This document shows, in pieces, positions 531 to 45,082 of a stretch of DNA of 45,843 nt (position 1 is its first letter; each line of letters begins with the position of its first letter). Origin of the DNA: an uncultured Actinomycetes bacterium (GTDB lineage Bacteria; Actinomycetota; Actinomycetes; S36-B12; UBA5976). The notes below the pieces were generated by a model that was given only the letters and a program-made list of their open reading frames with translations, was not told where the DNA came from and did not search any database. The stretch is from positions 1 through 45,843 of the forward strand of contig CAJBBC010000101.1 in the NCBI GenBank assembly GCA_903951185.1. Reading direction: 5' to 3'. The translations under genes were made by a program, and so were the position numbers.

Positions 531-674
531 TTTTCCCCCGAGCTGTCGTTGTAATTCCAGTTTGTTATTGCAACTTGTACTGCTGTAGGGCAGTTCTATT
601 CCAGCGAATTATCCAGGTCAATAGGTCTTACTTTTTCTTTACTTTTCTGTGGATAACTTAAGCAACTAGATTTC

Positions 675-9947: not shown

Positions 9948-10268
9948 GTGACCTACATAATTGCCCTTCCGTGTGTAGACCTAAAAGACAAAGCATGTGT
10001 TGAAGAATGCCCGGTCGACTGTATCTACGAAGGCGATCGCATGATGTACATCCATCCGGATGAATGCGTGGACTGTGGCGCTTGTGAACCAGTATGTCCA
10101 ACTGAAGCAATTTTTTATGAAGACGATGTTCCAGAAAAATTTAATGACTACAAAGACATCAATAAAGACTTCTTCGTAACACTTGGCTCGCCAGGTGGTG
10201 CAGCTAAAGTTGGTAAAACAAGTAATGACCCAGCTGTTGTAGTTGCGTTACCTCCACAGGAGCACTAA
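9948..10268 (+). CDS. fdxA: 7Fe ferredoxin (3Fe-4S + 4Fe-4S)
   Basis: Sequence [21 protein letters not shown]...[24 protein letters not shown] before the GTG start. Confidence 0.9.
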
Positions 10269-10270
10269 AA

Positions 10271-11365
10271 CTGTTTACGCCACTTGCATCTGGGTTACCA
10301 GATTTTCCCTGGGATCGAATTGCGGCGGCTGGTGAAAAAGCCAAAGCCCATAAAGATGGAATAGTCGATCTTTCAATTGGTACACCAGTAGATGATGTAC
10401 CTGAGCTAATTCAAACTGCACTTGCAAAACATGCAAATGCGCCTGGCTACCCAACTGCAGCTGGCATAGTTGAACTTCGCCAAGCCTGGATTAACTGGGT
10501 TAAAACAGTGGCTAATTGTGATTTAACTGTTGATCAAGTTGTCCCCACTTTGGGATCAAAAGAATTAGTGGCTTGGTTACCAATTATTTTTGGTTTAGCT
10601 AAAGGCAGTACTGTTGCGATTCCAGAACTTGCTTACCCAACGTATGCAGTAGGCGCATTAATGGCACATGCCAATGTCATTACTTATGTCACGGCCCAAG
10701 ACATTACTGACACAGTCGATTTGATTTGGGTTAATACCCCAAGTAATCCAACTGGCCAGGTTTTGTCAGCTGTACAACTAAAAGAAATAGTTGAGCGTGG
10801 CCGAAAAATTGGCGCCCCAATAGTTTCGGATGAGTGTTACATCGAACTTGGTTGGTCAGTTAAGCCAGTTTCAGTCCTTGATCGTTCGGTTAATGATGGC
10901 GACTTAACTGGAATTTTGGCGGTCTACTCACTTTCAAAGCGCTCTAATTTAGCTGGCTATCGATCTGGCGCAGTTGTTGGAGATCCAGAATTAATCGATA
11001 ACATCACAAGTTTGCGAAAGCATTCCGGGATGCTGCTGCCAACGCCAATTCAACATGCCACGATCGCTGCACTTGGGGATACTAAGCATGTTGAAATACA
11101 AAAAGCTAAATATGGCGCTCGCCGTGATTTACTTCACACCGCGCTAGTTGAAGCTGGCTTTGAAATAAGTCATTCAGAGGCAGGCCTATACCTTTGGGCT
11201 ACTCGAGGTGAAGATTGCTTTGCAACGGTTGATTGGCTTGCAACCAGGGGTATTTTGGTAGCTCCAGGGGACTTTTATGGCGTTGCCGGTGCCAAACATA
11301 TCCGCGTAGCCATGACCGGAACTGACGAGCGAATTTCACATTTTGCCAGTCGGTTACGTAGTTGA
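10271..11365 (+). CDS. dapC: N-succinyldiaminopimelate aminotransferase DapC; N-terminus extended beyond the ORF-track call, probable CTG start
   Basis: The frame is open from 10229. Codons 10271-10507 encode LPDFPWDRIAAAGEKAKAHKDGIVDLSIGTPVDDVPELIQ...GYPTAAG..LRQAW, a typical DapC N-terminus. There is no ATG/GTG/TTG before 10508. AGGAG (10258-10262) lies 8 nt upstream of CTG 10271. Confidence 0.8.
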   Translation: MFTPLASGLPDFPWDRIAAAGEKAKAHKDGIVDLSIGTPVDDVPELIQTALAKHANAPGYPTAAGIVELRQAWINWVKTVANCDLTVDQVVPTLGSKELVAWLPIIFGLAKGSTVAIPELAYPTYAVGALMAHANVITYVTAQDITDTVDLIWVNTPSNPTGQVLSAVQLKEIVERGRKIGAPIVSDECYIELGWSVKPVSVLDRSVNDGDLTGILAVYSLSKRSNLAGYRSGAVVGDPELIDNITSLRKHSGMLLPTPIQHATIAALGDTKHVEIQKAKYGARRDLLHTALVEAGFEISHSEAGLYLWATRGEDCFATVDWLATRGILVAPGDFYGVAGAKHIRVAMTGTDERISHFASRLRS

Positions 11366-24451: not shown

Positions 24452-27400
24452 GTGGTTCGGCAAAAACAAAAAATTATGGGCAGCACCTTGGTATCGGTGC
24501 GTTTTCTTATTGCAACAATTATCGCAATAGTTCCAACACTTACAGTTTTAAATCCAGCAAATGCGGCAGCTTCGGGCACTATGCCGAATTCAATGGTGGC
24601 TGACATCACAAACTTTAAACTGCTTTCCAGCACTGGCACTACTCCGAGTATTTCGAATTTTTCAGGTTCTGTTCGAGTTGTAGTTACAACCACAAATGGA
24701 ACATCTAAAATCACAACGACGACGGGGCTTACGGCCCCTACTGGCTATTCCTCAAGTGACTGGACTGCGGGAGCAGCCTCGCTTGGTTTTGAAGGTAATT
24801 TAACAAACGTAAATAATGCAATTGCGACAATTAGTTTTAAGGGAACGTCCGCAGCTTCAGCAGCAAGTGTTCAAGTAAGCGCAATATCTGCTGGGGCGGC
24901 TTACAATCCTGACAACGGACATTATTACGAGATTGTTAATAATGGCTCTGCAATCAACTGGGCAACCGCTAGAGCAAATGCTAAAGCTCGAACATTCAAC
25001 GGATTAACTGGATATCTGGCAACTATTACTTCACAAGCTGAACAAACCTTTCTTTACAGCAAAACTGTAACTACAGGATGGATTGGTGCATCCGACGGAT
25101 ACGACGTTTCAACTAACCAAATTTGGAAATGGGCAGATGGTCCCGAAGCCGGCCAAACTTTCTGGACCACCGCTTGCGGAACAGGTGCACAAGGGATTTG
25201 TTCCAGTACCGGAATGTATAACTTTTGGAACTCCGGTGAACCCAATGGGGTTAACGGTAGCGAAGATAATGGCGAATTTGGTTTCGGTAGCGGTGGTCAA
25301 TGGAATGATTGCCAAAATGGCTGTAACCGTACTCAGTACATTGTTGAGTATGGCGGTGCCGGCGGTACAGCAGCCGAGTCCTTTGAAGCAACTACATCAA
25401 TAACCGTCACCGCCGTTCCGGCAGCACCAACAATTAATTCATTAACTATAGACAATGCTGCAATCGGTGTTAATTTCACAGCCGGTTCTGCGAACAATTC
25501 TGAGATAACTAAATTTCAATATTCGACTAACAGCGGAACTAACTGGGCAGATTTATCTGGTTTAACTTCGCCTCAAGTTATTACGTCAACTAGCGCTGGA
25601 ACATCGCTCTCAAATGGGACGAGCTATACCGTGATCATTCGAGCCGTGAATGCGGTTGGTAACAGTTTGGCAAGCTCAGGCGTAAGTGGAACTCTTGGGA
25701 GTCCTACAAATAGCGACACTTGGTCGGGTGCAGCACAAGTCTGCCCTCGATTAAGTCTTTCCTCTTCGTGCACATTCACCGGAAATAACAGCAGTGGAAC
25801 ATCTCAGTCGCACTCAGGTTGGTCAGAAGGCTGGGGTGGGAAAACAGTTTGGTACAAGTTCTCTCCGCTAGAAAGTGGAACAGTTACTATTCGTGCAACA
25901 TCACCAAGCTTTGACAACACATTACATTTAACAAGCAGTTCTGATTCCCTCTTAACTTCTAACGACGACTCCTATGGATTAGACGCAAAAGTTGCCTATT
26001 CGGTAACAGCAGGGCAGACGTATTATTTCGCTCTTGGCTCCTATTCAAGCGGAGCGGGTAGCGCAACTCTTAGCGTTTCGATGTCAGTACCAACACCACC
26101 GTCTAGTCCAACGGCAAGTACTAGTGGAGTAAGTCGCACGGCGGTTGTTAGTTGGACTGCCTCAAATGCTTCGGCTGAAGGAACGACAAGCTATGAAATT
26201 GCTCCATTTGTTGGCGGGGTGCAAGTTACTCCAACCACTGGCATAACAAATTTGACGGTTTCAGGTACACCGCCACTGACTACCTCAACTGTTTCTGGCT
26301 TAACTAATGGCACTTCATACACGTTCAAAATTCGTTCAGTAAATGCAAATGGACCGAGTGCATGGTCCACTGAAACTTCTGCCATCACAATTTATGGGCC
26401 AGCGAGTGCGCCTTCGTCTTTAATTAAGGCACAAGATAATCAACAAGTAACGGTTTCTTTCACGGGTGTTTCGGGTTCTGGCCTAAATGGTGGAACTTTT
26501 GTCAGGTACGAATATCAAGTGGGATCAGGATCGTGGGTTGATATTGGATCAAGTTTAAGTTTTACAGCATCGGGTTTAACTAATGGAACTGCTTACACAT
26601 TCAACGTCAGAGCTATAACGCTGGTCGGCGCTTCAAACATTAACGGAACATCAGCATCTATTTCTGGCACGCCAAATATTTTGCCTGCAAACACAGTCAG
26701 TCCAACTATTTCAGGTACAGCGCAACATGGACAAACATTCTCTATTCCAAGCGAAGGAACATGGACCGGCGGAGGAATAAGTTACACATACCAATGGCAA
26801 CGAGCTAGTTCACCGTCCGGAACTTTCACGGACATATCTGGTGCCACATCAACAACCTATGTAACTGGAAATTCAGATCTAGGAAATTTTCTAAGAATTA
26901 AAATTATTGGAACAAATTCGACTGGAGCGGGCTATGGTTACTCCGGCGCTTCGGCAGAAATTTTAGACCAACCGGCAATTAACAGTTCCGCTCCATCGAT
27001 AACTGGTACAAAAACTGTCGGCTCAACACTCACAGCATTAGCAGGAACTTGGGCAGGTACAAGAAATGTCTACACTTATGAATGGTTTCGGTCTGAGGTA
27101 TCTGGAGGTGCTGCAACCCTAATTTCCGGTGCAAATTCTTCAACATATTTACTAGCAGTTGAGGATGCGGGAAAGTTCATACACGTTTTGGTAACGGCAA
27201 CAAATTCATCAGGTATTAATTCAGCGAATAGCTCTGAAACTACCGCTATCAGCAAAGCAAGCCAAACGCTCTCCAATTTTTCAAATCCCGGCACCACTGC
27301 GTATTCTTCAGGTTCTGCCGCTATTTCCGCAGAGAGCAACCGGGGATTAGTAATTGATTTTGGTTCAGCGACATCAGCAGTGTGTTTAGTTGGAAGTGAA

Positions 27401-30154
27401 TCTCTTGCTGGCAATACAACTTCAGCAACAGTCACGTTTCTTGCAGCTGGGACTTGTTCTATTACAACCTCACAGTCTGGAAGTGCTGGATATGACTCCG
27501 CCACACTCTCTAATCAAAGCTTCACAATTTCACTGTCGGCACCTTCGGTGCCTAGAAATGTTACGAGTTCAGTTTCAGGAACTTCAGCAACAATTTCATG
27601 GCTTGCACCAAGTAGCAATGGTGGATCGGCAATCTCTAAATACATTGCTTCGGCGCAGCGGGGCTCAGACACACCATTTACTTGCAACGTGACTAGCGGT
27701 TCGATGGATTCCTGCCTAATTACAGGGCTAACTGAAGGCGATCAGTATACGGTCACGGTCGTTGCCGAAAATACCTCTGTTGGTGCATCGAATAAACAAT
27801 CGTCTGCAAATAGCACTTCAGTGAAATTTGCAGTGCCAACAAAAGTTTCAACTCCAGGAACAATTCCTGCGCAAATCACAAAAGTTGCACCAGTTAAATT
27901 TGTTGGAAATATTTCCGATACCTCAAGGCAACTTTTAGCCAACTCTGGTGTTGTAACGCCACCGGCACAAGCGCCAGAAGTAAAAGTTTCAACGAATCTT
28001 TCAACAGCTTCGATTAGCAATGCGACTGCAGTAACTCTTGAAGAAACTGTTACTTCAGGGTCAGAAATCGTTTTAGAAGTTATTCCGCCATCAAATACAC
28101 CGATAGGGACAGTCTTTCGAGGTTACTTGGAGCTACTTGACGGCACACTTGTCGATCTTGGTAATTTCACATTGAGCGCAAATCAAATAACCCAAGGCGC
28201 CGGTCCCGATGGATTCACTATTGTTCCAATCGGCGATTACAAGGTCTACTTATATGTAGGTGACCGAGTTAACTCCAGCAGTTTTTCAAATTCCTCAGGT
28301 GCGTTTAATTCAAACTCGACAATGCAAGTGCAGAGCGCATTGTTTATGCCAAATGCAGTTACTAGATCTCCTGGCCAAGTAGAGGTCACATATGACTTAA
28401 CTGTGGCAGCAGGACCGAATGGTGTGCCTTCACTAACTAACCCAGTAACTTCAACCCCAACCCCAACCCCGACACCAACCCCGACACCAACACCTACGCC
28501 AACACCAACTCGAAGTACGGCTGCACCAACACCAACTCCAGAACCAACTACTGCGCCGGCTCCAGAGCCAAGTCCAGAAGCTTCAGTTCAAGCACAAGAG
28601 CAAGCCGAAGTAATTGATGATCGCGGTCTTGAAGTTGTCGATCCAATTGCTGATGCACCAGAAGAAGTTGCGCAAACAACAGTTACTGCCGTAACTCTGG
28701 TTGCTGCAGTAACTGCCGCGGCTAGCGCTGCAACAGCAGTTGCCGCAGCAGCAGGAGCAGCTGCAAGTGCTGGCGCGGCTGCTGCAGGCGGAGCAGCCGG
28801 TTCCTCTTCTGGTGGAAGTTCATCAGGTGGCGGTTCAGGTTCACGTTCATCAGGTGGCGGTTCATCATCTGGTGGATCAAGTTCATCTTCAAGTGGCGGA
28901 TCTGGTTCTGGTGGTTCTGGTGGTGAAGGTGGCGACGATGAAGGCGCAACTATTGAAGGTGTTGATTTTGAACTTGAAGGTTTCGAAGCTCAACACATTG
29001 CTTGGGGTGATGGCTTAAAAGTTTGGTCAATTCCAGTTGCAACTGCGTTGGATGCACCAAGTCATAATGCAACGATCAAAATTTCACCGATCACACCATT
29101 AGTTGCAAAATTAATTTCTGATGGCGCTTACTTAAAAGCAATGCTTGGCACCATCGCAATGAGCTTGCCAGTTCTTGGCATGGTGCTTGGGTTAATTGGC
29201 GTAATTCAATCTGGCGGTTTACTGCTGCCACCGGCCGGAGCAATCGTGTTAGCGATTGCAGTCATTGGTGTATTTGACGCATTGGCTGGCTTCTTAGCCA
29301 TGCTGGTATTCACAATTGGCATTACTGCAACAGCAGGTATTAGCACGGCTGCTGATGTGCGAATGATTCTTGGTTTGTTCATTATTGGTTTTGGTCCAGC
29401 ATTGCTTGCCGGCGCATTCCGCGGACTAAGACGTCCGGCTGCAAGCGCGCATCATGAATGGTGGGAGCGCGGTGTTGACTTAGCTGTTGCGCCATTCTTA
29501 GGTGGCTGGGCAACTAAGGGAATGGTTGAAGCATTACCTGCGCTAAGTGGTGTGCAATTACCGATTGCTGATTATGCAACCTCCATTGCTTGGGCAGTTG
29601 CGATCGCATTAATTGTTCGCGTTGTTTTAGAAGAAGTAGTTGCCAAGTTATTCCCAGGTCGCTTGAACTTTATTCACCCAACTGATCTGCCTAGCCCATC
29701 GAATTTGCAAAAAGTAATTGCCCTAACGATGCGGGCTGGAATTTTCTTCTTCGTTGCTGGAGCATTTATTGGCAACAGCTGGCATTTGTATGCAGGTACG
29801 TTCTTATTTATCGCGCCAAGTTACCTTGGACTATTACAAGATAGATTCCCGAACTATCCAAAGCTTTACCAACTTTTGCCAGCAGGCTTACCTGGCCTTG
29901 CTTTCACTTTGTTAGTGGCTTCAGCTTCACTTTCGGTAATGACCTCAATTTTTGGCGCAACTCCTGACTTAGCTAAAGTTGCGTTCGTCCTATTGCCGAT
30001 TCCATCGGTTATTTTAAGTGTGCTTGGCATGTTTGGTCGTGAGCCAGCCCAAGGTGATGTGCGCTGGTATCAACGTGAGAAACTCACCTGGCTTTACCGA
30101 ATCGGCGGCATTGGCATGCTGATTTACACCATGCAATTAACTGGCGTTATTTAA
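24452..30154 (+). CDS. giant (1900 aa) multidomain surface protein with a polytopic C-terminal membrane domain
   Basis: Domain order: signal peptide (...VLNPANAAAS), C-type lectin-like domain, four FN3-like modules, a PPC-like domain (WYKF...YYFALGSY), two YxYQW-type Ig-like repeats, a (TP)9 linker, an Ala-rich TM-like segment, a Gly/Ser tract, then about 10 TM helices. No LPXTG. Start is GTG 24452 or ATG 24476. Confidence 0.85.
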   Translation: MVRQKQKIMGSTLVSVRFLIATIIAIVPTLTVLNPANAAASGTMPNSMVADITNFKLLSSTGTTPSISNFSGSVRVVVTTTNGTSKITTTTGLTAPTGYSSSDWTAGAASLGFEGNLTNVNNAIATISFKGTSAASAASVQVSAISAGAAYNPDNGHYYEIVNNGSAINWATARANAKARTFNGLTGYLATITSQAEQTFLYSKTVTTGWIGASDGYDVSTNQIWKWADGPEAGQTFWTTACGTGAQGICSSTGMYNFWNSGEPNGVNGSEDNGEFGFGSGGQWNDCQNGCNRTQYIVEYGGAGGTAAESFEATTSITVTAVPAAPTINSLTIDNAAIGVNFTAGSANNSEITKFQYSTNSGTNWADLSGLTSPQVITSTSAGTSLSNGTSYTVIIRAVNAVGNSLASSGVSGTLGSPTNSDTWSGAAQVCPRLSLSSSCTFTGNNSSGTSQSHSGWSEGWGGKTVWYKFSPLESGTVTIRATSPSFDNTLHLTSSSDSLLTSNDDSYGLDAKVAYSVTAGQTYYFALGSYSSGAGSATLSVSMSVPTPPSSPTASTSGVSRTAVVSWTASNASAEGTTSYEIAPFVGGVQVTPTTGITNLTVSGTPPLTTSTVSGLTNGTSYTFKIRSVNANGPSAWSTETSAITIYGPASAPSSLIKAQDNQQVTVSFTGVSGSGLNGGTFVRYEYQVGSGSWVDIGSSLSFTASGLTNGTAYTFNVRAITLVGASNINGTSASISGTPNILPANTVSPTISGTAQHGQTFSIPSEGTWTGGGISYTYQWQRASSPSGTFTDISGATSTTYVTGNSDLGNFLRIKIIGTNSTGAGYGYSGASAEILDQPAINSSAPSITGTKTVGSTLTALAGTWAGTRNVYTYEWFRSEVSGGAATLISGANSSTYLLAVEDAGKFIHVLVTATNSSGINSANSSETTAISKASQTLSNFSNPGTTAYSSGSAAISAESNRGLVIDFGSATSAVCLVGSESLAGNTTSATVTFLAAGTCSITTSQSGSAGYDSATLSNQSFTISLSAPSVPRNVTSSVSGTSATISWLAPSSNGGSAISKYIASAQRGSDTPFTCNVTSGSMDSCLITGLTEGDQYTVTVVAENTSVGASNKQSSANSTSVKFAVPTKVSTPGTIPAQITKVAPVKFVGNISDTSRQLLANSGVVTPPAQAPEVKVSTNLSTASISNATAVTLEETVTSGSEIVLEVIPPSNTPIGTVFRGYLELLDGTLVDLGNFTLSANQITQGAGPDGFTIVPIGDYKVYLYVGDRVNSSSFSNSSGAFNSNSTMQVQSALFMPNAVTRSPGQVEVTYDLTVAAGPNGVPSLTNPVTSTPTPTPTPTPTPTPTPTPTRSTAAPTPTPEPTTAPAPEPSPEASVQAQEQAEVIDDRGLEVVDPIADAPEEVAQTTVTAVTLVAAVTAAASAATAVAAAAGAAASAGAAAAGGAAGSSSGGSSSGGGSGSRSSGGGSSSGGSSSSSSGGSGSGGSGGEGGDDEGATIEGVDFELEGFEAQHIAWGDGLKVWSIPVATALDAPSHNATIKISPITPLVAKLISDGAYLKAMLGTIAMSLPVLGMVLGLIGVIQSGGLLLPPAGAIVLAIAVIGVFDALAGFLAMLVFTIGITATAGISTAADVRMILGLFIIGFGPALLAGAFRGLRRPAASAHHEWWERGVDLAVAPFLGGWATKGMVEALPALSGVQLPIADYATSIAWAVAIALIVRVVLEEVVAKLFPGRLNFIHPTDLPSPSNLQKVIALTMRAGIFFFVAGAFIGNSWHLYAGTFLFIAPSYLGLLQDRFPNYPKLYQLLPAGLPGLAFTLLVASASLSVMTSIFGATPDLAKVAFVLLPIPSVILSVLGMFGREPAQGDVRWYQREKLTWLYRIGGIGMLIYTMQLTGVI
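24914..25354 (+). other. C-type lectin-like domain within the giant protein
   Basis: Sequence WATARANAKARTFNGLTGYLATITSQAEQTF, WIGASDG, WKWADG, FWNSGEPNG (EPN at 25238-25246) and GQWNDCQNGC (WND at 25301-25309). Confidence 0.75.
28454..28510 (+). repeat. imperfect hexanucleotide tandem repeat encoding (Thr-Pro)9
   Basis: ACC CCA / ACC CCG / ACA CCA units read directly from the sequence. Confidence 0.95.
28799..28924 (+). repeat. Gly/Ser low-complexity tract with an internal 20-nt perfect direct repeat
   Basis: GTTCATCAGGTGGCGGTTCA at 28818-28837 and again at 28845-28864. The 27-nt offset keeps them in frame. Confidence 0.9.
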
Positions 30155-43004: not shown

Positions 43005-44060
43005 CTAAGCAGTTGCCGCCGGTAACCAAAAACACCCGCAAGAGACATGTGGGTAGTTCTGAGTTTCAACCGTTTCAGTTGAGCCCGATAAATACCACCA
43101 GTGGTTCAGTTCGGTGGAATTAAAGTCAATCCAATTAGCAATTTGCTGGTAACTGAACAAAGCAGCTCGAAGTACAAGATCAGTCGGGGTTAAATCAGGT
43201 GTAGACCGGCCAACAAGTTGAGAAATTAATTTAGGCCAATCTGAGTCTTGATCCTGTTGGTGTAAATGAAAACAACGAACACAGCCTGTTACTCCCGGAA
43301 TATTTACAGATGTAACTAGGGCAGATCGATCGGAACTTGCCAGGACTAGATATGGGGTATCTGACGAAACAGCCAGATCAACAAGATGTGGTTCAAGGTA
43401 TGGAATATCAGCAATTGGATCAGGGGCAAAGACAATTAACGATGATTTACTCCTTGTTTCTTTGAGGCGCATAGTTTGAAGTTGTTCACGATGTACTCGC
43501 TCCAATAATGTTTGGACAACGTAATCACGACGCGCACCCACATCAAGTCGACTAAAACCCCACGGCGTTAAATCAGAGTTAGAGATTCTAGTTGAATCGA
43601 TAATTCTAATATTTGAAAAACCAGAATTACCAAGTAAGAGGGCTAGCGTAGAACCGTTTCGACCAGCACCAACTATTGATATTCGCGCAGCTGTTCGATT
43701 TGCAATTGAAGTTGGATTTGAGTACGTGGCCCGCTGAGCATCGAGTAGATGACTTACTTGGTTGTTACTTAAGCTACGAAGTTGTGGAGTTGATGAAATA
43801 AGTAATCCATTTTTAATGAGCAAATCAATTACGTTTAAAGTTGAAGTTTTATCTAAATCAAATTCAAGGGCTAGTTCAGCTAATTGAGCGACAGTATGCG
43901 AACCATCGCAGCTATCGAGTACACCGCGGAATACATTAGGTAACTGCACAGCCGTTTGCGGATTAAGTCCAAGTTGAATTGTTTTTGAATTACGTTGTAG
44001 TGGATAAATCCCTGGCGCAATTCGAATATGTTGCTGGCTAAATTCAGGCGAATGTTTCAT
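43005..44060 (-). CDS. E1/ThiF-like protein with an N-terminal PqqD/RRE-like winged-helix segment
   Basis: N-terminus: TIQLGLNPQTAVQLPNVFRGVLDSCDGSHTVAQLAELA...VIDLLIKNGLL. Rossmann segment: RISIVGAGRNGSTLALLLGNSGFSNIRIIDSTRISNSDL. Cys pairs CVRC and CGC. Confidence 0.65.
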   Translation of the reverse strand: MKHSPEFSQQHIRIAPGIYPLQRNSKTIQLGLNPQTAVQLPNVFRGVLDSCDGSHTVAQLAELALEFDLDKTSTLNVIDLLIKNGLLISSTPQLRSLSNNQVSHLLDAQRATYSNPTSIANRTAARISIVGAGRNGSTLALLLGNSGFSNIRIIDSTRISNSDLTPWGFSRLDVGARRDYVVQTLLERVHREQLQTMRLKETRSKSSLIVFAPDPIADIPYLEPHLVDLAVSSDTPYLVLASSDRSALVTSVNIPGVTGCVRCFHLHQQDQDSDWPKLISQLVGRSTPDLTPTDLVLRAALFSYQQIANWIDFNSTELNHWWYLSGSTETVETQNYPHVSCGCFWLPAATA

Positions 44061-44099
44061 GCGCTATTTCTATAGATTTATCGGCGAAACGGTGCCCGG

Positions 44100-44325
44100 T
44101 AATCCACATTTGGCGCTTAAAGCCAGGGTTTGTCCAGATTCTGGACTAAAGCCAAACTATTTTCTGTCCACATGGGGTGGATAGTAAAACCCCTGATAAA
44201 ACCAGTTATTTGTGCAGGGTTTCAAAAAGTATCCCCAAGTTTTCCACCGCAAAACCCCTCAATTCACAGGCCTTTCCCCAAGTGATCCCCAGCTTTATCC
44301 ACAGGAAATCGGACTAAATCCGCAA
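44100..44325 (+). promoter_or_regulatory. phased array of about 10 DnaA-box-like 9-mers
   Basis: Sites: TAATCCACA 44100, TTGTCCAGA 44130, CTGTCCACA 44164, CTATCCACC (minus strand, 44176-44184), GTATCCCCA 44229, TTTTCCACC 44240, CAATTCACA 44260, TGATCCCCA 44283, TTATCCACA 44295, AAATCCGCA 44316. Confidence 0.5.
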
Positions 44326-44371
44326 TTACATTGCGCTACCTACTTAATACCCCGTAAATTCAGTGTTCGTT

Positions 44372-44466
44372 GAAGCTCTCGAGATAACGAGCCGACATTC
44401 GCAAGGGGAAGGCGAATGGCCGAGCACGTGGCTCGAGGGCTTCATCTTTTGCCGGAGTTACCCTAG
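44372..44466 (+). promoter_or_regulatory. structured leader with a 16-codon uORF upstream of the DUF45 gene
   Basis: A 12-bp helix, GAAGCTCTCGAG (44372-44383) pairing with CTCGAGGGCTTC (44432-44443). An inner 7-bp helix, CATTCGC/GCGAATG, has a purine-rich AAGGGGAAG loop. The uORF runs from ATG 44416 to TAG 44466 (MAEHVARGLHLLPELP). Confidence 0.35.
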
Positions 44467-44470
44467 TTAA

Positions 44471-45082
44471 GTGGCCGATGAACAGCAATCGTTATTTGAT
44501 GATTTTCTAGCAGATTGCCAATTAGATGGAACTGTATTTTCTAAGTCAACAAAAATTTCAGCAAAACCTGATTATGAAATTAGACGAAGTAAACGGCGCA
44601 AGAAGTCAGTCGGAGCTTTTCGCGAAAATGGCAAAACAATTATTGTGGCGCCAATCAGGATGTCTCTAAAAGAAGTTCATGGTTACGCCCAAGAGCTAGT
44701 TGCAGAATTAAATGGACACTTCGACAAATTAGCTTCACAGGAATTACTTGAACAGCGTGCAAAGTTTGTAGCCAAGCAGTATTTAGATGTAGATGTTTTC
44801 AGTACTCATCCAGTTCCGGTTTCAATTAGCTGGGTTGCAAATCAGAATTCACGCTGGGGTTCGTGCACGCCAGCTGATGGAAAAATCAGAATTTCAAATC
44901 GAATCCAAGGTATGCCGCAATATGTAATTGATGCAGTATTACTTCACGAGTTGATTCATTTAATTGTGGCTGATCACAGCCCAAAATTTTATGAGTATTT
45001 GAACAAATTTCCAGATTACAAATTAGCGAAAGAATATCTAGCTGGATATTCATTTGCCCAACAAAATTACATTGGTGATTAG
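44471..45082 (+). CDS. DUF45/M48-like (YgjP/SprT-like) zinc metallopeptidase
   Basis: HExxH in VLLHELIHLIVADHSPKFY. Also NSRWGSCTP...KIRISNRI, typical of DUF45. GTG start. Confidence 0.8.
   Translation: MADEQQSLFDDFLADCQLDGTVFSKSTKISAKPDYEIRRSKRRKKSVGAFRENGKTIIVAPIRMSLKEVHGYAQELVAELNGHFDKLASQELLEQRAKFVAKQYLDVDVFSTHPVPVSISWVANQNSRWGSCTPADGKIRISNRIQGMPQYVIDAVLLHELIHLIVADHSPKFYEYLNKFPDYKLAKEYLAGYSFAQQNYIGD

Follow-up and report, generated by a model that had tools for sequence, protein, structure and literature searches.

A phased array of DnaA-type sites upstream of a conserved hairpin RNA: a candidate DnaA-controlled regulatory module of Actinomycetota

Several kinds of DNA element outside the chromosomal origin engage the replication initiator DnaA. 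The datA and DARS loci of Escherichia coli are non-origin elements that modulate initiator availability, sda and other DnaA-box clusters (DBCs) of Bacillus subtilis place DnaA boxes outside oriC, and in dnaA autoregulation DnaA acts at a box-preceded promoter. Box clusters have reportedly been described outside oriC in B. subtilis (Ishikawa 2007, as cited in PMC4451416) and near oriC in Streptomyces. To our knowledge, Hda, SeqA, YabA, datA and DARS have no clear counterparts in Actinomycetota, and we know of no DnaA-controlled small RNA. Within oriC of E. coli, ordered low-affinity DnaA sites (the R1-tau-I and R4-C arrays) guide cooperative filling by DnaA-ATP (PMC4451416), and a Pseudomonas aeruginosa study presents DnaA as a transcription factor at the box-preceded promoter of gidAB-parAB (PMC13438810). 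Here we analysed contig CAJBBC010000101.1 of an uncultured Actinomycetes bacterium (assembly GCA_903951185.1; positions 1 to 45,843, hereafter the window), which contains an array of DnaA-box-like sites in its largest intergenic gap. Comparison with related loci points to a conserved actinobacterial regulatory module of three parts: a consensus box, designated j, with four to six weaker TCC(A/C)CA sites upstream in one orientation and a distal pair, b/c; a putative sigma-A-type promoter, separated from box j on its downstream side by whole helical turns; and a candidate hairpin RNA of about 75-85 nt with an invariant purine loop.

Like sda and the DBCs, this locus has an off-origin box cluster directly upstream of a very small gene that possibly reports replication status, and the cluster may both regulate and titrate. 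It differs from them in that the small gene specifies a non-coding hairpin RNA, where sda encodes a peptide, in that the array is unidirectional and held to an 11-bp register, and in that conservation extends over a large part of a phylum and not one genus. The E. coli oriC arrays likewise have a high-affinity anchor followed by weak sites of the same orientation one helical turn apart; the present array, in contrast, comes without a clear unwinding element, a second opposed array or other signs of an origin, and ends at a promoter. datA, DARS and the Streptomyces clusters share the position of DnaA boxes outside the origin, but they are without a coupled conserved RNA gene, and we know of no phylum-scale conservation for them. 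In the DnaA-regulated promoters of dnaA and gidAB-parAB, as here, boxes lie upstream of the promoter. Box clusters and DnaA-regulated promoters are accordingly familiar, whereas a non-origin DnaA-box cluster joined to a predicted DnaA-controlled promoter that carries a new RNA family is new; full-text literature searches returned no paper linking DnaA boxes to an actinobacterial small RNA, and none naming a small RNA at this locus.

The array lies in the gap 44061-44470, which at 410 bp is the longest non-coding stretch of a window that is about 44% guanine plus cytosine (GC) and about 93% coding, close to the 94% given in an initial annotation of this DNA. The runner-up gaps proved to be occupied by genes, namely secE and, inside a 389-bp gap, a DUF3117 gene. 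Eight sites within two mismatches of TTATCCACA fall in the gap, against 1.28 expected from the window-wide rate (143 such sites across 45.8 kb), and the densest 250-bp stretch of the window for these sites is inside it. The initial annotation had listed ten 9-mers here, all of which we found where it placed them. Comparison with related loci retained those at 44164, 44176-84, 44229, 44240 (a weak slot), 44283 and 44295, whereas those at 44100, 44130 and 44316 were not conserved and the one at 44260 was weak or off-register; the list had also missed a site at 44272 and a degenerate slot at 44251. The sites that make up the array are the following.

44164 to 44172, plus strand: site b, CTGTCCACA, the outlying conserved box, placed 131 bp 5' of the anchor (offset -132/-131).
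44176 to 44184, minus strand: site c, CTATCCACC, head-to-head with site b (TCCACA-N-GTGGA).
44229 to 44237, plus strand: site e, GTATCCCCA, a weak box at offset -66, consensus nTnTCCcCA.
44240 to 44248, plus strand: slot f, TTTTCCACC, offset -55, weakly conserved (consensus ttgTnCACc, 6.0 bits).
44251 to 44259, plus strand: slot g, AAAACCCCT, degenerate in the window and TnATCC(A/C)CA in most relatives, offset -45/-44.
44272 to 44280, plus strand: site h, CTTTCCCCA, offset -23, consensus cTgTCCCCA.
44283 to 44291, plus strand: site i, TGATCCCCA, offset -12.
44295 to 44303, plus strand: site j, the anchor, TTATCCACA, a perfect DnaA-box consensus.

The only other perfect TTATCCACA of the window, at 648-656 on the minus strand, is isolated; it lies 19 nt upstream of an open reading frame (675-1274) that has a GVG start and no Pfam match. 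The gap also contains two short perfect inverted repeats, GTCCAGATTCTGGAC and CGGACTAAATCCG (44132-44146 and 44310-44322), both lineage-specific, the second of which is positioned between box j and the -35 element described below.

Related loci were gathered by two routes. The array diverges from a gene for a ThiF-like protein, a rare family with 27 matches among 5.8 billion proteins, and the alignment of this family led to 28 loci from freshwater Actinomycetota genomes (43-52% GC), many of them labelled Nanopelagicales. In essentially every genome locus that retained upstream sequence, box-like sites reached their highest density per 250 bp directly upstream of the ThiF-like gene, even where protein identity had fallen to 28-37%, and alignment of the orthologous gaps revealed that the boxes keep their orientation and spacing at fixed offsets. 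These genome loci were pooled with metagenome loci into 76 non-redundant upstream regions (43-76% GC), each taken with 300 bp upstream and anchored on the promoter-proximal box. Occupancy by TCC[AC]CA on the same strand was as follows.

Offset 0 (anchor): 74 of 76 loci, with TCCACA at the anchor.
Offset -12/-11 (site i): 63 of 76 loci.
Offset -23/-22 (site h): 57 of 76 loci.
Offset -45/-44 (slot g): 58 of 76 loci.
Offset -67/-66 (site e): 46 of 76 loci, or 53 counting -68.
Offset -132/-131 (site b): 45 of 76 loci, or 49 counting -133.

The slots thus stand at 0, -12, -23, (-34), -45, (-56) and -67 relative to the anchor, confirming the helical phasing that had been proposed from the window and extending it, as an 11-bp register, to the related loci; one array in this register describes the sites better than the duplicated module of roughly 55 bp suggested at the same time. 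The position weight matrix of the anchor over the 76 loci reads T-T-G/A-T-C-C-A-C-A at 14.6 bits (column counts T53, T63, G58 plus A14, T76, C76, C74, A76, C76 and A76), which is the DnaA-box consensus TT(A/G)TCCACA. The other slots retain T4, C5, C6, C8 and A9, and their position 7 is either A or C. TCC[AC]CA occurs at 35.4/kb in the 146-bp array versus 0.71/kb in the other 489 kb of the 76 loci, a 50-fold enrichment, and 387 of the 393 array sites are on the strand of the hairpin RNA. This RNA lies 3' of the array in all 76 loci, including contigs of 62-76% GC.

The head-to-head b/c pair was found again in both low-GC and high-GC loci, and directly 5' of box b is a conserved T-rich CTATTTTC. 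This T-rich stretch (44156-44163) is retained even in genomes of 70% GC and is degenerate in loci without a divergent gene (L035, L054); a leftward promoter may have its -10 region here. The interval from site c to site e (44185-44228) also holds a short conserved motif, which reads GCCTGATAAA at low GC and either GCAGGTCAG or GCTGGTCAG at high GC, and to which a second factor might bind.

To the right of the boxes, the alignment of orthologous gaps contained an almost invariant element that folds as a long hairpin (single-sequence fold -39.5 kcal/mol, z -2.9). Its parts in the window are given below.

44367 to 44450, plus strand: small hairpin RNA of about 84 nt, recognized by fold, covariation and covariance model.
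44372 to 44383 pairing with 44432 to 44443, plus strand: basal stem, GAAGCUCUCGAG/CUCGAGGGCUUC.
44396 to 44402 (CATTCGC) pairing with 44412 to 44418 (GCGAATG), plus strand: apical stem, CAUUCGC/GCGAAUG in the RNA.
44403 to 44411, plus strand: invariant apical purine loop of 9 nt, AAGGGGAAG.
44447 to 44450, plus strand: T-run after the hairpin.

Metagenome contigs were searched with a 17-nt core, TTCGCAAGGGGAAGGCG. Among the matches listed, about half fell by chance within coding sequence (an IS transposase, trigger factor) and were discounted, and at least about 57 carried the same hairpin (60 passed the fold filter, from which three were removed as coding). The hairpins among the matches listed are mostly on contigs of 62-76% GC, with wholly rewritten stems and an invariant loop and closing pairs, and copies of the module have RNAs of about 75-85 nt; the T-run follows the hairpin in low-GC loci and is often missing in high-GC loci. 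In a 50-sequence alignment, 11 of the 13 basal-stem pairs had changes on both sides, 95.8% of cells were paired compared with 34-62% in slid-partner controls, and double-change cells numbered 98 against 8-21 in those controls. The same alignment has 64 G.U pairs versus 15 A.C pairs, and the covariance model found one copy in the window, scoring 82 bits (plus strand) versus 30 bits (minus strand). As G.U pairs far outnumber A.C pairs and the score depends on strand in this way, the element is an RNA read from the plus strand. The structured RNA adjoins the boxes and excludes them, so the repeats of the array are not explained by RNA pairing, which the initial annotation had considered.

The hairpin RNA represents a previously undescribed family outside Rfam: the window gave no match to Rfam 15 at the gathering score, the region had no relevant match at E<=10, and seven high-GC copies had none at E<=1. 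The nearest parallel is 6C RNA (RF01066), a phylum-wide actinobacterial hairpin small RNA with conserved C-rich loops. Both are short, very stable hairpins across Actinomycetota with an invariant loop sequence and variable stems, but 6C has two hairpins with C-rich loops, whereas the RNA described here has one with the purine loop AAGGGGAAG, and no 6C match appeared on either strand of the RNA region in the Rfam scans. The invariance of both loop and closing stem suggests that a protein or a particular partner RNA recognizes them. A small peptide starting at AUG 44416, after the Shine-Dalgarno-like loop, was rejected, as L001, L008, L013, L019 and most high-GC copies do not keep the start codon; the substitutions preserve pairing instead. 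The loop was also rejected as a mimic of a ribosome-binding site, its duplex energy with the 16S 3' end being no better than that of shuffled loops. On a 52% GC contig, L051, the invariant core occurs at 556-611 (minus strand) in a hairpin that matches the model partly (22 bits) and may be a divergent member of the family.

Between box j and the hairpin, comparison of the loci revealed a putative promoter.

44331 to 44360, plus strand: putative sigma-A promoter, with -35 TTGCGC at 44331-36, an 18-nt spacer and -10 TAAATT at 44355-60.

At this position, 74 of the 76 loci carry the pattern TTG(A/C)NN-N17/18-TAnnnT, as TTGACG or TTGACC with TAGCGT or TAGGTT at high GC and as TTGCGC or TTGCGT with TAAGTT at low GC. 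The distance from box j to the -35 element is either 18 bp (30 loci at 17-20) or 27-28 bp (44 loci at 27-29), two classes that differ by one helical turn, suggesting that the array keeps the same helix face relative to RNA polymerase. From the end of the -10 element to the core there are 33-38 nt, and transcription is therefore expected to start within a few bases of the hairpin foot, about 7 nt past the -10 element.

The genes around the array are less constant than the RNA. In the window, the immediate neighbours are two.

43005 to 44060, minus strand: ThiF/E1-like gene of 351 aa (Pfam ThiF), divergent from the array.
44471 to 45082, plus strand: YgjP-like/DUF45 (SprT/WLM-like) metallopeptidase gene (Pfam), starting 20 nt past the T-run of the RNA.

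An alignment of 27 homologues of the ThiF-like protein has the invariant columns C260-x-R-C263, H265 and H338-x-x-C-G-C343, and neighbours of the gene include SprT/WLM-like (DUF45), Zincin_2 and Lon_C/PDZ peptidases. High-GC loci share a conserved actinobacterial neighbourhood of Zincin_2, Lon_C/PDZ, YgjP-like, PHP/HhH, ThiF-like and NUDIX genes. What lies left of the array varies by lineage (a ThiF-like, YgjP-like, PHP/HhH or co-directional Zincin_2 gene), and in several high-GC loci the YgjP-like gene is found across the array from its place in the window. Beyond the RNA, the next gene at high GC is often convergent (enoyl-CoA hydratase, NUDIX), so that in many of these loci the RNA is probably its own transcription unit. 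Judged from these arrangements, the constant partner of the array is the RNA alone and not a protein gene. Further upstream, Pfam assigns adnA, adnB, nudC and a uvrD2-like helicase gene in the window. A 1900-aa open reading frame at 24452-30154 (plus strand), with fibronectin-III and Ig-like domains, is unusually large for a streamlined genome.

For comparison with canonical origins, we used Mycobacterium tuberculosis DnaA domain IV (PDB entry 3PVP) as the query, which retrieved actinobacterial dnaA fragments. Five rpmH-dnaA-dnaN loci of 66-74% GC were obtained, the fifth of which ends at dnaA, leaving four dnaA-dnaN gaps (L153-L156). TCCACA and TCCCCA together occur in these gaps at 4-13/kb, compared with about 1/kb in their flanks and 35/kb in the array. 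The presence of both variants in canonical origins supports DnaA as the reader of both and, together with the match of the anchor to the full 9-bp consensus, bears out the DnaA-box-like nature first proposed for the array. Stand-alone DnaA domain-IV proteins were rejected as the binder: the matches of 90-130 aa are frameshift fragments of dnaA in long-read assemblies. Many proteins that appear to consist of a DnaA C-terminal domain only (P0028-P0147; loci L153-L157) are likewise frameshifted pieces of dnaA and not stand-alone paralogues. In L153, a 74% GC actinobacterial origin region, a segment of about 55 bp (10146-10199, minus strand) holds four TCC(A/C)CA sites in a single orientation, directly upstream of the gene for the helicase loader DciA (10207-10701); the sites upstream of this gene are not found in L154.

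With slightly better than even confidence, we favour a reading in which DnaA assembles on the array and controls the promoter of the small RNA. By this mechanism, DnaA would occupy the high-affinity anchor and then spread cooperatively over the phased low-affinity sites, probably as DnaA-ATP if the arrays of E. coli oriC are a guide. From the helix face shared with RNA polymerase, it would govern transcription from the small-RNA promoter, the abundance of the RNA would follow initiator status, and the invariant apical hairpin would relay that status to a target. Among the roles offered by the initial annotation, a DnaA-controlled promoter fits best, although the divergent unit it had in mind does not: the conserved controlled unit would be the RNA and not the ThiF-like or DUF45 gene, because the flanking protein genes change between lineages.

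Several points weigh against this reading. C recurs at position 7 of the sites, giving TCCCCA, unlike the classical CACA core, and this variant could mark a different or additional protein. An E. coli-consensus scanner called neither a promoter nor a terminator (long hairpin) in the window, whose promoter hexamers are weak by that consensus. All array sites are upstream of the -35 element, and activation and repression are therefore not distinguishable from the sequence. No CTTCCCCTT-like target site for the loop was found in the window besides the gene's own complement, and none conserved near dnaA in the five origin loci. In the window the RNA could also serve as a leader for DUF45, whose start codon lies 20 nt further on. 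Finally, the high-GC loci were assigned to Actinomycetota by GC content and gene neighbourhood, from which the presumed taxonomic breadth of the module derives.

The alternative that survives best is that the array is mainly a sink for DnaA, or a site of its inactivation or reactivation, as with E. coli datA or DARS and the clusters of B. subtilis and Streptomyces, with an RNA gene that is incidental or keeps the region open. A cluster outside oriC whose density equals or exceeds that of canonical origins, phased weak sites that suit assembly of a DnaA oligomer, and retention of the module in a streamlined genome all agree with it. However, with only one to three strong boxes per locus its capacity would be small, titration needs neither the 387-to-6 orientation bias nor a -35 distance quantized in helical turns, and array and RNA occur together in 76 of 76 loci. 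We regard this explanation as unlikely when taken as the main function, though titration or DnaA inactivation could coexist with a regulatory role.

A regulator other than DnaA, for which an OmpR-family response regulator is one candidate, might instead bind the 11-bp-phased TCC(A/C)CA repeats and control the RNA promoter. Direct repeats of 11 bp just upstream of a -35 element are typical of OmpR/PhoB-type activators, most array sites have C at position 7, and slot f is TTGTTCACC in many low-GC loci, resembling the Streptomyces PhoP repeat unit. Nevertheless, only this one slot is PhoP-like, and PhoP was rejected as the binder since the other slots do not fit its motif. The anchor fits all nine positions of a DnaA box, T1, T2 and G/A3 included, and both box variants populate canonical origins too, which makes such a regulator improbable. 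MtrA was rejected as well: its motif from chromatin immunoprecipitation sequencing (ChIP-seq) is a direct repeat c-G-T/A-n-A-C/T-c with a 9-nt unit and 2-nt spacing (PMC6265350), which has the 11-bp period in common with the array but is unlike TCC(A/C)CA in sequence.

The third alternative keeps DnaA as the binder and has it regulate mainly the flanking genes, ThiF-like leftwards and DUF45 rightwards. The b/c pair and a conserved T-rich GAAAATAG (minus strand) are placed where a leftward promoter would be, and the short distance from the RNA to the DUF45 start in the low-GC lineage is compatible with such control; in that lineage the DUF45 gene may be transcribed by read-through from the RNA or from a leaderless promoter. 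Against this, the left gene depends on lineage, the right gene is often convergent and only the RNA is constant, and we consider flanking-gene control to have a small chance of being the principal function.

The site also lacks the marks of an origin. Cumulative GC skew climbs through the whole window with no switch, being +0.030 to the left of the site and +0.043 to the right, and the mean over 32 loci (+0.026 left, +0.018 right) shows no sign change either. The nusG-rplK-rplA-rplJ-rplL genes, and 27 of the 38 genes in all, are on the plus strand and directed towards the site. No dnaA was detected by tblastn in the window or in about 150 related loci searched, and it is also missing from the Pfam-annotated gene neighbourhoods of the window and related loci, in agreement with the initial annotation that this is not a canonical oriC context; canonical rpmH-dnaA-dnaN origins exist in the phylum. 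In the L153 and L154 origins a pair of abutting boxes is followed by a GC cluster, by trinucleotide repeats (TACTACTGTTAC, GACGACGACGAT) and by an AT-rich block, a unit that has no conserved counterpart downstream of box j. Averaged by position, AT content across the high-GC loci stays flat and peaks at just 53% over 9 bp; single high-GC loci reach 70% AT in 30 bp, and a triplet-run measure separated controls poorly. The core does not occur in 2.9 million viral contigs, on which ground a mobile or phage origin was rejected. A displaced, secondary or relic replication origin, which the initial annotation had entertained and which could appeal to a box density as high as that of oriC, to divergent immediate neighbours, to the short T-rich stretch beside box b and to the AT content of those single loci, is therefore very improbable.

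Returning to control of the RNA promoter by DnaA, we tentatively extend this reading to a replication-status circuit, a joint proposal that we think possible but would not expect to hold in full. The phased array would act as an analogue sensor of DnaA-ATP that sets the level of the hairpin RNA, and the RNA, through its invariant purine loop, might pair with another RNA or a protein or sequester it, and in such a way feed back on functions in replication or the cell cycle.

Control of replication initiation is poorly understood in Actinomycetota, Mycobacterium and Streptomyces included. From 43% GC in streamlined freshwater lineages up to contigs of 76% GC, the array is preserved to the base pair, always with the same RNA, and the module predicts a strong off-origin DnaA peak in chromatin immunoprecipitation, a new abundant RNA, and a link between initiator status and gene regulation. 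If the proposal is true, the module would be the first DnaA-controlled riboregulator and would supply a missing regulator of initiation in a phylum without Hda, SeqA and YabA.

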